DNA from: Nitrosopumilaceae archaeon
Lineage (GTDB): Archaea; Thermoproteota; Nitrososphaeria; Nitrososphaerales; Nitrosopumilaceae
Direction of reading: 5' to 3'
NCBI GenBank assembly: GCA_965214835.1
Contig: CBDCCK010000002.1
Coordinates: forward strand, 512,001 to 576,000
DNA: 64,000 nt
Shown: positions 290-4,860 of the stretch, piece by piece
Numbering within the stretch: the first letter of the stretch is position 1
Layout of the letters: each line of letters starts with the position of its first letter
The notes under the pieces: generated by a model
The model's database searches: none
What the model was told of the DNA's origin: nothing
The model's input: the letters and a program-made list of their open reading frames with translations, nothing else
Position numbers and translations under genes: made by a program

Positions 290-916
290 TTATTTCTTTA
301 AATCCCAAACACTTTTCTTTTCTAGTAATTCTTGAATAAACTCCACGATTTCTTTTACCTCTTTTGCATATTCGGGATAAATATCAAATGCCAACCATTC
401 AGAAATTATGGAATAAACATATTTAGTCATTCGACCATATTGTGCTAGATACAATAGTCCAGCTACTGGAAGTTTAACATACCATAATTCTTTAAAATTT
501 AACATTCTGCTATTTGATTTGGATGAATGTCTTCTAAGCCATTTTGAGATTTCGTTAATTAATTCCTTATTTGATTCGGAATCGTTATCTTGGTTCTTTG
601 CAATTAAAACAGTAAATCTAACAGAATCCAAAGGAATTATTGTAGAAAATCCATTAATTTCCAAGTAACATATAGCTGCAAGTAAGCCGGTTCTTTTATT
701 TCCATCATAGAACGGATGCATTCTAATAATTCCTTCCATTAGACTAGCTGCTTGCTTGAAGATATTGTCATATGGCATCAACGAACCGATTTGTTGAGTT
801 GGTCTATCTGCAATAGATGAAAGTAACCCTTTATCTTTCACACCTCGAAATACATTAAAATGCTCCTCAACAATAGTGTGAAGTTGTAACAAATCTTCTT
901 GGGATAACTGTTTCAT
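290..916 (-). CDS. Fic/Doc (death-on-curing) family toxin
   Basis: HPFYDGNKRTG Fic/Doc motif; Doc-like N-terminus (GVKDKGLLSS..RP). Confidence 0.9.
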   Translation of the reverse strand: MKQLSQEDLLQLHTIVEEHFNVFRGVKDKGLLSSIADRPTQQIGSLMPYDNIFKQAASLMEGIIRMHPFYDGNKRTGLLAAICYLEINGFSTIIPLDSVRFTVLIAKNQDNDSESNKELINEISKWLRRHSSKSNSRMLNFKELWYVKLPVAGLLYLAQYGRMTKYVYSIISEWLAFDIYPEYAKEVKEIVEFIQELLEKKSVWDLKK

Positions 917-1017: not shown

Positions 1018-1379
1018 ACTTACCACACATAAAATTAGTATTTAATTGTAACAGATCGGGTTTATGAATGTGTTATATGGAAATAATGTCCACTATTCAT
1101 TGATGGTGCGAGTTTACCCCTCAGGCGACAAGGCTGGCCGGAACCTTCATGATCGTGCCTATTACGCCGTATTCCTCGAGATGGGGTAAACTTATGCAGC
1201 TGTGATATGGGAGACACTTAAAAATGGGGTGCATTTTCATCCATGATAAAAACCCCGGCCGGTAACACGGCGACGTTCCTTGCTTCTTCTGATCCGTGCC
1301 TAGTAGGTCGGGCCGTGCTTTATAACTAACGCTAGCAACACGCACGGATCATTGGGCAGGTGGCGGGGCAGAGGCGATC

Positions 1380-2459
1380 CTACGCCGTCGTCCCGGCCAG
1401 CTCAGTTACCCTCTTGATCTTCTTGTTGTACAAGGCATTGTTACATGATGAGTACGGAGTCTTTGTCATCAACATGTGCCAGATTATCCTAAGCATCTTG
1501 GTTGCAGCGTGGGTTATCGCTATGACATGGCTGTTGCCGTTCCTTCTGCGAACCCTCTCGTAGAACTCCTTCATCCTGTCGTCGTACTGTACGGCGACGT
1601 TGGCTATCTGGGTCATCACCCAGTTGATCCTGCGGTTTGCATCCTTTTTCATGTGACCGTGATACTCGCGGTCCCCCGACTGGTATACCCTTGGACACAG
1701 GCCGGCCCAGGACACAAGATGGCTCGGTGATGGAAACCTGGCTATGTCGCCGACCTCTGCTAGCAACAGCATTGCTGCAAAGGCCTCTATCCCAGTCATG
1801 CTCATCAGTATCTTGGCATACTCGCTGAGTCCTGCCTGTCTTCCTATGTCCTTCTCTGCCTGATCTATCTCCTTTGTGACAGATGCAATCCTCCTAGTGC
1901 AACTTGCCAGTATTCTGTTGTCGTTTGGCATGTCCAGCTCTGTCTCGGAAAGCTTTTGTATGGCCTTCCTAGAGTACATTGTGGATGCGTCTATGATTAT
2001 ATCGTACTTGTCAAGCAGGCTGTGTAGCCCGTTTATGACTGCGGTTCTGTCCTGTACAAGACGTATCCTGTACCTCATCAGCTCCCTGACATCCCTCAGG
2101 TCTGCAGGAGCTACGTAGCAGCGCGGTATCATTCCCGCCCTGAGTGTGTTGGCTATCTTCCTTGCATCTATGGGATCAGTCTTTGCGCTGGTCTCCGATA
2201 TTATCTTCATCTTGAGTGTGTTTGCCAGCAGTATGGGTATGTGATGATCCTCAAACGCCCTGAATGTCTTTAGCCACATGTTGCCCGTTGACTCGCATGC
2301 GGCCTGGCATTTCTTGTACTTTTTTTTCAGCCGGACAGCAAGCTTTGCTGCCTCCTTGTACGTGTTGTCATACGAGCCCTCCTTAAGCACGTGTCCCTTG
2401 GCGTCTACAACGCACACTGCACATCTTCTTTTTCCAATGTCTATTCCTATGCTTTTCAA
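1380..2459 (-). CDS. IS110-family DEDD recombinase (transposase)
   Basis: GIDIGK, ACESTG, KTDPIDARKIA (DEDD RuvC-like) and WAGLCPRVYQSG (catalytic Ser) motifs; likely TTG start at 2459 behind SD GGAGGTG (2471-2477) rather than 2516. Confidence 0.93.
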   Translation of the reverse strand: MKSIGIDIGKRRCAVCVVDAKGHVLKEGSYDNTYKEAAKLAVRLKKKYKKCQAACESTGNMWLKTFRAFEDHHIPILLANTLKMKIISETSAKTDPIDARKIANTLRAGMIPRCYVAPADLRDVRELMRYRIRLVQDRTAVINGLHSLLDKYDIIIDASTMYSRKAIQKLSETELDMPNDNRILASCTRRIASVTKEIDQAEKDIGRQAGLSEYAKILMSMTGIEAFAAMLLLAEVGDIARFPSPSHLVSWAGLCPRVYQSGDREYHGHMKKDANRRINWVMTQIANVAVQYDDRMKEFYERVRRRNGNSHVIAITHAATKMLRIIWHMLMTKTPYSSCNNALYNKKIKRVTELAGTTA

Positions 2460-2504
2460 TCCTTTTGTTTCACCTCCTTTCAGATTATGGTTTGATAGAT
2501 CAGA

Positions 2505-2632
2505 AGCTGCATTCATCCATCAGTGCGCGAAGCACAGGAACACAGCAGCTCGGATATCCCCATTCAACTACGAGTGCGCGAAGCACATGAAAATGAAGGG
2601 GTTGATCCATCACCCTGACTACGGCGGGGGTG
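2505..2632 (-). ncRNA. IS110 bridge RNA (5' stem, target-binding loop 2558-2601, donor-binding loop 2505-2550)
   Basis: Two internal loops, each capped by an identical GTGC-TTCGC-GCAC hairpin; guides match the empty target (CATTTTCA / GTAGTTGAA) and the circle junction (TGTGTTC / ATGGATGAA). Confidence 0.85.
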
Positions 2633-2703
2633 TTTTTATCATGTGTTCAACTACTGATTCACTATCAATCCTTAAAACACACCCTAATGTATTTTGGGTA
2701 TCA

Positions 2704-4860
2704 ATGTCGAATTCCAAGGAATCCAATCATGGCAATGAATTTCTTTTTGCGAAAGTTAAGGAAGAGGTTTCTACACGAGAAAAAAGCAAGCCTTCTCCAC
2801 ATAAACCTAAATCGTTTGAAGTCGACTTTGATCCAAGCTTAACTGATATTGAGAGTATAGGTGTCGAACAGCAAGTTAGAGAAACTGCAGCGTTTCTAGA
2901 AAAGAAAACAATTAGAGATGATGACGAAGTTTTTTACAACATTTATCCAAAATATGAAATTTCCCAGCCAAATGTAAAATATCTATTAGAAAGGTTAGGC
3001 GCACAAATCGTTGCTTATACTGATAGAAAAAATAATGGATTTTTACTTGCGGCTTCAAGACAAAGATTACAAAAATTAAGTGAAAAACCAACTAAATACT
3101 TGACCAATACTCTGAGAATAATAAAACCACTTAAACCTGGTGAACAAATCAGCAACACTCTAAGAAAAAACAAAGAAACACAAATGGCAGTATTGTCAAT
3201 AATTCCTAATCTGGAATCAGATAAAAATTTTAATTATATGGGCAAAATGATAACGTTTCTAGCAAATAACAACTGTAAATTATATGGGTTAGATTTACAA
3301 AAATACGGATTTGTTTTTGCTGATGTGACTCTTTACATAGTAAATAAATTAGTGGACGAATCTACATTCATTTTTCATATTAGTGAAGTTCCAGACGCCA
3401 TAGCACATGAGATCCGAAATTCAGAACATAAAAAAACAAAATTAGAAAAAACCAACTCTAATAATCTTAAAAATAAATTTCTTCCAACTGTTGTCTTAAT
3501 GGATAGTGGCGTTAATCCAATTTCTTCATTAGGAAAAGTGTTGATATCTCGTGATGCTTATTTATTCCAAAACTTTGATGATGAACATAGGAATCTTGGT
3601 CATGGAACTCCTATTGCTCATCTGATGGCGTATGGAGAAAATGACAAGGAACCCACTGTGAATATCATTTCTTACAAAATTTGGTCTGATGAACAGAAAA
3701 AATGGGCTTTTACAGGAATGATCAATGGAATTGAAAAATATCATAAAGAAACTCGATTTTTTGTAAGCTCCATCGGCATTCCTTTTTTACCTTTACATCA
3801 AATTGTTGTCTTGGAAAAATTAGTTCAGGAAAAAAACATTTGCCTAGTTGTTAGTGGAGGGAATATTCAACTGTCTGACATCAAAGCATGCCTTGAAAGT
3901 GGTGCTCAGTATCCCGATTATCTGAAATCTTTCCCTGTAATTCCTCCTGCTAATGGTGTGAACATCGTCTCCATAGGTTCACTGGCAAAAAAAGTAAGTA
4001 CCAAATACACGTCCCTAGCTGACTCAAATTCAATATCTCCTCACTCTAGGTGCGGCTCGGGTGCTGTCGAACTACACGATTGTAAAAAACCTGAATTAGT
4101 TGAACATGGAGGAAACATAAATGTCGATAATTCGTTTAACCTAAACTCTGAAGATGTCGGTGTGTCTTCTTTTGACAAGGATGATAATTTTGTTACTTCT
4201 CTTTCTGGGAGTAGTTTTTCATCGCCTTTGTTTGCTAGAAGATTGGCACAGATAGAACAGCGATATAGATCAAGGATCACTAACATTGAAACATTTCTTG
4301 CAATTAGCTATCTTACAAGTACCAAAAATAATGATTCTTGTTGGGGTTATGGGGAGCCAACGACCATTGTCGGATGTGATAAAAACTCTGCAATTTATTT
4401 AGCTGAGGGAAAGCTGGGTTTTACAAACACTGATGAGCAATCTATTAGAACCCCTCACAACGACATTGTGTTTTACGTTCCTCCTAGAGTAGATGAAATC
4501 CAACTTTGTATAGTACATTCTGATGATTTTAAGAAAGCAACAATTCCAACTTTGGAAACTTTTTTGGACGTTAAAACATACAAGCTTGGAAACAACAAAC
4601 TAATTCGCCCTCAAAATCGCAGCAATCTTGACTCAAAAACGAATGTTAAGATTCTTACCTACAAATTTGATTCAAAGAGCATGGAATCGATCTGGACTTT
4701 TAAAATAAGACCACGATTGGTAAACGATGTCTTAACAGAAGATAAAAGAAAAATCAACGTTAGGTACGGATGTGCAATTCTATTGAAAGGAAAGTTAGCC
4801 AGGCAGTCAAAAAAATCCCTCACCCAAGAGGTGATTGAGAATAGGGAGAAATATATGTGA
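2704..4860 (+). CDS. S8 (subtilase) family serine protease, Y4bN/IetS-like, no signal peptide
   Basis: Catalytic triad motifs VVLMDSGV, HGTPIA, GSSFSSP and KPELVEHGGN; start reassigned to ATG 2704 because the ORF-track N-terminus runs through the IS. Confidence 0.85.
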   Translation: MSNSKESNHGNEFLFAKVKEEVSTREKSKPSPHKPKSFEVDFDPSLTDIESIGVEQQVRETAAFLEKKTIRDDDEVFYNIYPKYEISQPNVKYLLERLGAQIVAYTDRKNNGFLLAASRQRLQKLSEKPTKYLTNTLRIIKPLKPGEQISNTLRKNKETQMAVLSIIPNLESDKNFNYMGKMITFLANNNCKLYGLDLQKYGFVFADVTLYIVNKLVDESTFIFHISEVPDAIAHEIRNSEHKKTKLEKTNSNNLKNKFLPTVVLMDSGVNPISSLGKVLISRDAYLFQNFDDEHRNLGHGTPIAHLMAYGENDKEPTVNIISYKIWSDEQKKWAFTGMINGIEKYHKETRFFVSSIGIPFLPLHQIVVLEKLVQEKNICLVVSGGNIQLSDIKACLESGAQYPDYLKSFPVIPPANGVNIVSIGSLAKKVSTKYTSLADSNSISPHSRCGSGAVELHDCKKPELVEHGGNINVDNSFNLNSEDVGVSSFDKDDNFVTSLSGSSFSSPLFARRLAQIEQRYRSRITNIETFLAISYLTSTKNNDSCWGYGEPTTIVGCDKNSAIYLAEGKLGFTNTDEQSIRTPHNDIVFYVPPRVDEIQLCIVHSDDFKKATIPTLETFLDVKTYKLGNNKLIRPQNRSNLDSKTNVKILTYKFDSKSMESIWTFKIRPRLVNDVLTEDKRKINVRYGCAILLKGKLARQSKKSLTQEVIENREKYM

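Follow-up and report, generated by a model that had tools for sequence, protein, structure and literature searches.

A candidate guide RNA in an archaeal IS110-family insertion sequence that matches the ends of other insertion sequences

How does an IS110-family element find its sites in an archaeal genome, and could an RNA encoded in its own end direct it there? The question is raised by a 1408-bp element on the minus strand (2647-1240) of a 64,000-nucleotide stretch of a Nitrosopumilaceae archaeon genome (contig CBDCCK010000002.1, positions 512,001 to 576,000; the whole stretch is called the window here), with the dinucleotide TG bordering it on both sides (2649-2648 and 1239-1238). Our answer is that this archaeal insertion sequence (IS) of the IS110 family is very probably moved by recombination guided by an RNA of the bridge/seek type. 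The family and the archaeal host had both been proposed in a first-pass annotation made from the sequence, and both were upheld. The recombinase matches DEDD_Tnp_IS110 (PF01548, 9.1e-30) and then Transposase_20 (PF02371, 2.7e-24) in Pfam, as well as the NCBIfam model NF033542, 'IS110 family RNA-guided transposase' (234.2 bits; cut-off 140), and the element thus belongs to the IS110 family. The host is an archaeon, as the archaeal small-subunit ribosomal RNA (SSU) model outscores the bacterial one at the same locus (1452.6 versus 1089.2 bits) of the 3.22-Mb genome, which has 52.6% G+C. The recombinase aligns distantly to the solved chains of ISCro4 (E 8.3e-09) and IS621 (E 1.6e-08), and its residues D7, E56, D95, D98 and S261 align with the IGID, E, KTD..DAR and Y.SG motifs of those chains. 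Residue S261 sits in a G..P....SG motif; GL.P....SG was considered as a marker of the IS1111 group and rejected, as the IS621 chain has the motif too.

The features on which the argument rests are the following.

1380..2459, minus strand: recombinase gene, 359 amino acids, from a TTG start at 2459 to the stop at 1382-1380 (Pfam, NCBIfam and alignment to the IS621 chain)
2495..2610, minus strand: predicted guide-RNA core module within closing stem P1 (2610-2603 with 2502-2495), from P1 covariation and the covariance model R1 (134.1 bits)
2558..2601, minus strand: predicted target-binding loop, with stem CCCC/GGGG, an 11-nt 5' strand (2597-2587), a capping hairpin (2586-2574) and a 12-nt 3' strand (2573-2562), from guide-flank match and covariation
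2505..2550, minus strand: predicted donor-binding loop, with stem AGCTGC/GCAGCT, a 9-nt 5' strand (2544-2536), a hairpin (2535-2523) and a 12-nt 3' strand (2522-2511), from covariation with the element ends
2650..2654, minus strand: left target flank GTAGT, within the outermost bases of the terminal inverted repeat of another IS and equal to the five nucleotides before the core in the target-loop 3' strand (5/5)
2648..2649, minus strand: left copy of the TG crossover core (CA on the plus strand), the only sequence common to both junctions in all subfamilies and present once in unoccupied sites
2632..2647, minus strand: left end, a 4-nt extension AACA and a 12-bp subterminal inverted repeat (2643-2632) that is the reverse complement of 1253-1242
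1240..1253, minus strand: right end, the perfect subterminal inverted repeat 1253-1242 and a 2-nt extension GA (from the sequence)
1238..1239, minus strand: right copy of the TG core (junction comparison)
1232..1237, minus strand: right target flank AAAATG, 6/6 with the complement of the target-loop 5' strand, followed by an approximately 30-bp stub of the host IS terminal repeat (compared with intact IS ends)

The putative RNA module, of about 116-138 nt, lies upstream of the recombinase gene (module 2610-2495; gene from 2459), and both of its loops are capped by the same 13-nt hairpin, GTGC-TTCGC-GCAC. All strings of the two loops and of the 12-bp repeats that the first-pass annotation had described were found in the sequence where it had placed them. 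Covariation across copies supports its assignment of one loop to the target and of the other to the donor junction, and the compact module, the identical capping hairpins, a core other than CT and the combination of a 5' RNA with 12-bp subterminal repeats were also borne out. In the target loop, the 5' strand is complementary to the core and the right flank, while the 3' strand gives, in the sense orientation, five nucleotides of the left flank, the core and the first two bases of the element, set out as a two-base linker, guide, core, two handshake bases and a one-base linker. The target loop of the window copy matches its own flanks at 5/5 positions on the left and 6/6 on the right.

Guides and flanks were then compared in 27 sequences from 15 genomes, comprising 12 sequences from the host genome, 14 from a further 13 genomes of the class and a single contig of a metagenome-assembled genome (MAG). 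Five left and six right positions were scored, and the permutation tests used one representative per distinct guide. Right ends were parsed by a motif rule, the repeat-based automatic search being unreliable; a loose fuzzy scan for ends gave about 500 chance matches per end and was discarded. On the left, 11 of the 27 rows scored 5/5, 11 scored 4/5, three scored 3/5 and two scored 2/5. Among the 21 rows with a parsed right end, the scores were 6/6 in six, 5/6 in six, 4/6 in two, 3/6 in one, 1/6 in two and 0/6 in four, one of which is a mis-parse (G093; its 0/6 was kept in the test, and our own reading is 4/6). The 22 distinct left guides gave 89/110 matches to their own flanks, compared with 35.8 +/- 5.3 after shuffling (maximum 59), and the 16 distinct right guides gave 58/96, compared with 28.6 +/- 5.0 (maximum 50); none of 20000 shuffles reached the observed value on either side. 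In the eight tabulated copies of the major subfamily (see below), the right flank predicted by the guide was found in 8/8 and the exact left flank in 6/8, the other two scoring 4/5. The window taken alone gives a more modest signal. In the left non-coding end, the target is matched over at most 9 nt in the same sense and 8 nt in antisense, which 4/300 shuffles reach, and the donor matches are 9 and 7 nt, reached by 6/300. The main support is the covariation across copies.

The core can be read from the junctions. TG is the sole sequence that the left and right junctions share, it is single at an unoccupied site, and it stands at the core position in 24/27 target-loop 3' strands. The 'major' subfamily (nine near-identical copies, 85-88% identical to the window copy) has the left junction CCTGT-TG-AACAC... 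and the right junction ...CATGGA-TG-CATAAC, and a 66%-identity subfamily has ACTTC-TG-AACAC... on the left and ...ATAGA-TG-GGAAGAC on the right. As these two subfamilies share TG alone between their junctions, TG is taken as the core. The two bases that follow it in the target-loop 3' strand are AA where the left end starts with AA and AC in the two elements starting with AC, a rule that also holds in a Haloarcula plasmid copy. The first-pass annotation had located the handshake bases in the AT after the left target guide; the bases equal to the donor are instead these two after the core (AA or AC). This is what handshake pairing, described for IS621 at RNA positions 81-82, would lead one to expect (PMC11208158).

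The donor loop reads the element's own ends in the same manner. Its 5' strand is the complement of the core G and the first six bases of the left end, and its 3' strand gives, in the sense orientation, the last five right-end bases, the core and AA. Scored over distinct guide/end combinations, donor guides matched left ends at 81/102 positions, compared with 66.1 +/- 3.2 after shuffling (2/20000), and right ends at 30/35, compared with 24.0 +/- 2.2 (290/20000), the latter with only seven classes. Joint changes were found on both sides: the left ends ACTTTA and ACCTTA and the right ends ATGGA, ATAGA, ATAGG and ATGAG each occur with guides of their own.

The structure that would hold these guides was assessed on a MAFFT alignment of the 27 sequences (827 cells, 31 pairs, 500 shuffles, five measures). 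Pairing was found in 88.3% of the cells, compared with 78.2% after shuffling, both sides change in 20/31 pairs, and no measure was reached by any of the 500 shuffles; slid registers pair in only 27.7-49.2%. The stems behaved as follows.

Closing stem P1: both-side changes in 7/8 pairs, 91.0% paired
Target-loop basal stem: both-side changes in 3/4 pairs, 93.5% paired
Target-loop capping stem: both-side changes in 3/4 pairs, 93.5% paired
Donor-loop capping stem: both-side changes in 3/4 pairs, 97.2% paired
Donor-loop basal stem: both-side changes in 0/5 pairs, nearly invariant, 96.3% paired
5' CACCC/GGGTG stem: both-side changes in 4/5 pairs, 62.3% paired, weak

Four of the five main stems thus show compensatory changes. 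Stem P1, absent from the first-pass annotation, was found here. The CACCC/GGGTG stem of that annotation is present in the window as a possible 5' stem-loop (2611..2632, minus strand; CACCC at 2632-2628, GGGTG at 2615-2611) but is the weakest part of the structure. The minimum free energy (MFE) fold of the window module is unexceptional (z = -1.53; 16/200 shuffles fold as well). A K-turn of the box C/D type, suggested by UGAUGG near the 5' side of P1 and CUGA on the 3' side, was rejected, as many relatives have CCGA in place of CUGA, the Watson-Crick partner changing along with it. No T-run lies between module and gene, so the guide may be cut from the messenger leader.

The guides also point to natural targets. 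The flanks of the window copy rebuild a 13-mer of which 23 unoccupied exact copies exist in the host genome, where about 0.1 copies of a random 13-mer are expected in the 6.4 Mb of two strands. All of the unoccupied sites read CAGTAGT-TG-AAAATG and lie at IS termini: the 13-mer invariably lies 2 nt in from a repeat end, the repeats occur in inverted pairs about 1364 bp apart, and the repeat that bears this target encodes a 415-aa DDE_Tnp_1 transposase. The target of the major subfamily is found at the ends of other repeats, one of them with a DDE_Tnp_1 / DDE_Tnp_1_5 transposase. Overall, 13-mers predicted by the guides were found unoccupied in the genome for 5/10 guide pairs, with 23, 4, 9, 2 and 61 copies. 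The natural targets of the element are therefore terminal inverted repeats that belong to other (DDE) insertion sequences. For the window copy itself, the site is a stub of about 30 bp of such a host IS end, beside another repeat.

A total of 44 BLAST matches to the element were found in the genome, of which 14 are more or less full length, four are derivatives of about 375 bp and the remainder are many fragments. Among the 14 full-length copies (for example, C2 677612-679059 and 1517777-1519226), only the window copy keeps an intact recombinase frame (uninterrupted, 359-379 codons). In ten of them the first frame ends at one common point (...NGLHSLA), where a one-base insertion was present in all three copies aligned. 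These frameshifted copies are near-identical to each other and occupy separate guide-matched sites, which suggests that copies spread after the frameshift with a working enzyme supplied in trans; a programmed frameshift is a less likely explanation. The four derivatives (C2 639987-640362, 2955616-2955990, 3124154-3124524 and 2139575-2139950) keep both ends and the whole two-loop RNA module without the gene, some with target guides of their own. Copy 655674 has a left flank of the window type and a different guide, which would fit mobilisation by the RNA of another copy, or a later change.

These copies also bear on the strongest competing explanation, namely that the architecture is real and the window copy, or perhaps the whole family in this genome, is immobile, the matches being a record of past insertions. 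The broken reading frames of 13/14 full-length copies would fit such a fossil, as would the right flank, a truncated host-IS stub followed by another repeat. Contigs from four metagenome runs of one study span both junctions of the window copy and include neither an empty site nor a circle joint, although contigs cannot reveal rare forms. We nevertheless find this explanation unlikely: the frame of the window copy is uninterrupted with all catalytic residues in place, its guides match both flanks perfectly, 23 exact targets stand unoccupied, and the near-identical frameshifted copies at separate sites suggest an enzyme at work in trans.

For an element moved by a guide RNA, we propose the following course. 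The element would be excised as a circle with a right end-TG-left end junction, and an RNA would be transcribed from the left end, its closing stem holding the two stem/internal-loop/hairpin modules. The junction would be held in the donor loop and another IS's terminal repeat in the target loop. The target-loop 3' strand would pair first with the bottom strand and then, once strands have been exchanged, with the incoming donor in a handshake-like manner, and the donor-loop 5' strand would pair with the start of the left end. A tetramer of the DEDD/Ser recombinase would exchange strands at TG between the circularised element and the target. Each of the two subterminal repeats carries an outward-pointing, T-rich, TATA-like string. 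Once the circle has formed, the right-end string would be directed into the left end from about 26 nt ahead of 2632 and could act as a junction promoter, such as is described for IS621 (PMC11208158).

Several observations weigh against this proposal. Production of the RNA, its binding by the recombinase, formation of the circle and activity of the window copy are steps that we infer, and the window copy is single in its exact form, so that its recent activity is at most presumed. No RNA run was found that covers 1100-2800 of the window, and no Rfam family matched it between 1000 and 3000 at E up to 1. Wobble counts do not discriminate between the strands (47 G.U versus 32 A.C cells; 88.3% versus 86.5% paired). 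Two other full-length copies with a target loop of the window type (C2:1519226 and 1302404) match 5/5 on the left and, by our own reading, 2/6 on the right, and a set of decayed copies or copies resembling MITEs (transposable elements of the miniature inverted-repeat type) reach only 0-1/6 on the right (MITE639987, F2665849, G012b, MITE3124524 and G135). In addition, by our own reading of the 27-sequence scoring, the two nucleotides after the core in the donor-loop 3' strand do not track the right target flank, and a handshake role for them was rejected on that ground.

The wobble counts also leave room for guides acting at the DNA level, where the loop strands would serve as hairpin guides of single-stranded DNA, in the way that IS200/IS605 elements recognise their targets. 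The DNA contains all of the hairpins and guides too, and the wobble statistics do not single out the transcribed strand. This explanation is nonetheless improbable. RNA is required in this recombinase family, as reported for IS621 in vitro (PMC11208160) and for ISEc11 and its relatives (PMC11187229). The predicted sense-strand geometry moreover copies that of the solved IS621 RNA, with a one-base linker on the 5' strand, between core and capping stem, and, ahead of the basal stem on the 3' strand, a two-base handshake followed by a linker, whereas the antisense reading does not (PMC11208158).

The version favoured by the first-pass annotation, in which the bridge RNA is of the IS621 type and the core is TC or the overlap a 4-nt TTCA, fares worse still and is very hard to sustain. 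TGAA/TTCA does occur at both junctions of the window copy, but this is a coincidence, since the right flank of that copy by chance starts with AA. Left and right junctions read TG-AA and TG-CA in the major subfamily and TG-AA and TG-GG in the 66%-identity subfamily, and TG stands at the core of nearly all target-loop 3' strands. A TC core is without support. Nor does 'IS621-type' describe the RNA well: its guide order is reversed relative to IS621 (PMC11208158) and matches that of the IS1111 seekRNAs (PMC11187229). Finally, that the matches are random, or that flanking sequence was copied into the element end, is scarcely credible: the window alone is only modestly above shuffled sequence, but 22 left and 16 right guides at fixed positions inside covarying stems track their own flanks in 15 genomes, and the permutation tests contradict chance.

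The RNA-guided reading places the element close to known systems. That IS110-family elements recombine under RNA guidance is established, so the principle itself is not new, and the predicted layout is a variant of a known mechanism. With IS621 and ISCro4 it shares a DEDD and Ser recombinase with the same two Pfam domains, and an RNA in the left end, upstream of the gene, with two stem/internal-loop/hairpin modules for target and donor (PMC11208160). Further likenesses to IS621 are a 2-nt core within the pairings, two handshake-like bases after the core on the target-loop 3' strand and a 5'-strand core one base from the capping stem (PMC11208158). However, the recombinase is distant in sequence from both (E about 1e-8), and the core is TG here and CT in IS621. 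Polarity is reversed in both loops, the 5' strands reading the right halves (top strand) and the 3' strands the left halves, whereas in IS621 the left target guide (LTG, A50-U58) lies 5' of the right target guide (RTG, G77-G80; PMC11208158). The 12-bp subterminal repeats differ from those of the IS110 group, given as absent or 2-3 bp in PMC11208160. According to PMC11208158, the loops that bind target and donor (TBL and DBL) in IS621 are joined by a flexible linker, in contrast to the covarying closing stem P1, and the IS621 bridge RNA is numbered to nucleotide 177, compared with about 116-138 nt for the module described here. The 3' guides are also longer here (5+2) than the RTG G77-G80 (PMC11208158), and the lack of an Rfam match is a further difference from IS621.

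Several of these differences are likenesses to the IS1111 elements ISEc11, ISPa11 and ISKpn4. In the IS1111 seekRNAs, the complement of the top strand lies 5' of the match to the bottom strand, the order being reversed in the IS110 type (PMC11187229), and this is the guide polarity of the window element. The subterminal repeats of 12 bp compare with usually 11-13 bp (PMC11187229) or 7-17 bp (PMC11208160) in the IS1111 group; in the relative G152, the repeat matches at 13/14 positions by our own reading of the comparison. The terminal extensions are asymmetric and could agree with those of IS1111, being 6-7 bp on the left (TG counted) and 2-3 bp on the right here and 7 (or 6) and 3 bp there (PMC11187229). 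The outcome depends on convention: the values are 6 and 2 if the repeat is 12 bp, and 7 and 3 if it is taken from ATG, as in relatives. The G..P....SG motif is likewise present. The IS1111 RNA, in contrast, lies downstream of the gene (PMC11187229), where the window element has a 126-nt non-coding end without guide-like matches, and an upstream RNA is treated as a trait of the IS110 group (PMC11208160, PMC11187229). By position only, there are exceptions within IS1111, as the non-coding region of ISMtsp17 lies upstream, and ISHvo10 and ISAcp5 carry long non-coding regions at either side (PMC11187229). The predicted layout thus mixes the groups, joining an upstream RNA of the IS110 kind to guide polarity and long subterminal repeats of the IS1111 kind.

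Two further aspects have known parallels. Known bacterial elements insert site-specifically within the terminal inverted repeat of another transposable element and sever its outermost bases from its body, as here; the hosts in this genome are archaeal DDE_Tnp_1 insertion sequences, and several guide classes aim at different IS ends. Copies of a guide-RNA module apart from an intact transposase gene are known from ISPpu9/Ssr9 (PMC12288879); in the present case, the RNA-only derivatives are elements of about 375 bp that keep both ends, and there are in addition 10 full-length copies with a common frame break.

The covariance model R1, built from 25 of the 27 sequences, matches 24 places in the host genome. 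Across the class, it matches 20/151 sampled genomes (17/111 of good quality; 12/48 genera), one of the 20 being the unpublished G132, and its matches lie only upstream of recombinase genes. Relatives of the recombinase at E <= 1e-40 were found in 25/201 sampled genomes; the closest plasmid-borne ones are all haloarchaeal, with 31-35% identity, and two of three such plasmid copies give weak matches to the RNA model at the same upstream place (E 0.004 and 0.019). Upstream of the gene, the logic is the same in two haloarchaeal IS110-family copies, L066 and L067, with 31-35% identity in protein sequence. In L066 (Haloarcula sp. GH36 plasmid, 380-570), a loop with a closing GTGC/GCAC hairpin has a 3' strand equal to five flank bases followed by TG and AC. 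A fragment with 86% protein identity on a MAG contig labelled Nitrosopumilaceae (L031, 487-982) has a target loop identical to that of the window copy. The label of its bin is unexpected, which could reflect mis-binning or transfer.

Archaeal IS110 recombinases are well known, 662 having been reported (bioRxiv 10.1101/2024.06.21.599552), and large surveys covering archaeal genomes exist. No text on an archaeal bridge RNA was found among the papers searched; this type of RNA may already be present in Supplementary Table 5 of PMC11208160 and among the 86 models of bioRxiv 10.64898/2026.10.21.760802. The locus adds a well-controlled natural data set: 22 left and 16 right guide variants, each of which can be set against its own insertion site. 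The layout unites traits by which the literature tells IS110 from IS1111, and it bears on the evolutionary movement of the guide RNA between ends, a question raised in PMC11208160. An origin of Nop5/box C/D from IS110 has been proposed for Archaea, the domain of the host (bioRxiv 10.1101/2024.06.21.599552). If active, the compact module, with target guides of 5+2 and 6+2 and a different core, could broaden the available tool set.

A wider reading, which we offer tentatively and hold to be possible rather than probable, is that this is an archaeal lineage of hitherto undescribed, intermediate IS110/IS1111 architecture, in which IS1111 polarity and long subterminal repeats go with a left-end guide RNA closed by its own stem, found in 12/48 sampled genera and following the same logic in haloarchaeal plasmids. 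In this genome, one intact recombinase might serve defective and RNA-only copies, which would carry at least five working guide sets, every set directed at terminal repeats from its own resident insertion sequence, as a natural multi-guide, in-trans system that disables rival transposons, with a conserved 11-nt pairing between the two ends as a possible switch. The apparent use of many guide sets in trans and the targeting of the terminal repeats of other elements are testable ideas on mobile-element conflict.

The pairing in question joins 2507-2497, which follows the donor loop and overlaps the 3' strand of P1, to about 1316-1306, some 75 nt before the right end. Complementarity of at least 10/11 was found in 17/20 elements, compared with 5.75% of shuffled controls, and compensatory changes are included. 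Such a pairing could compete with the closing stem P1 and might switch the transcript between guide and messenger. The remaining features of the element are given below.

1254..1379, minus strand: right non-coding end (126 nt), with the 11-nt segment (GGATCAGAAG region) complementary to 2507-2497 (complementarity)
2470..2477, minus strand: GGAGGTGA, a motif resembling a ribosome-binding site, 10 nt 5' of the TTG start and conserved in relatives

The right non-coding end holds no guide-like match to target or donor; the longest are 5 nt, a length that 273/300 and 262/300 shuffles also attain. In one metagenome contig (run X3), 263 nt are skipped, from 2228 to 2492, that is, from the 5' part of the gene to just downstream of the donor loop.

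The element is flanked by a Fic/DOC-domain gene (290-916, minus strand) and by a gene for a 720-aa Peptidase_S8-domain protein at 2698-4860, the likely start of which is about 50 bp from the left junction, the junction lying upstream. An 860-aa open reading frame listed from 2278 was rejected as an artefact that runs into the element. At about 1100-1195 of the window, adjoining the stub of the host IS end, lies a short repeat of another kind, which has about 60 BLAST matches in the genome and a very high summed depth in the metagenome contigs.

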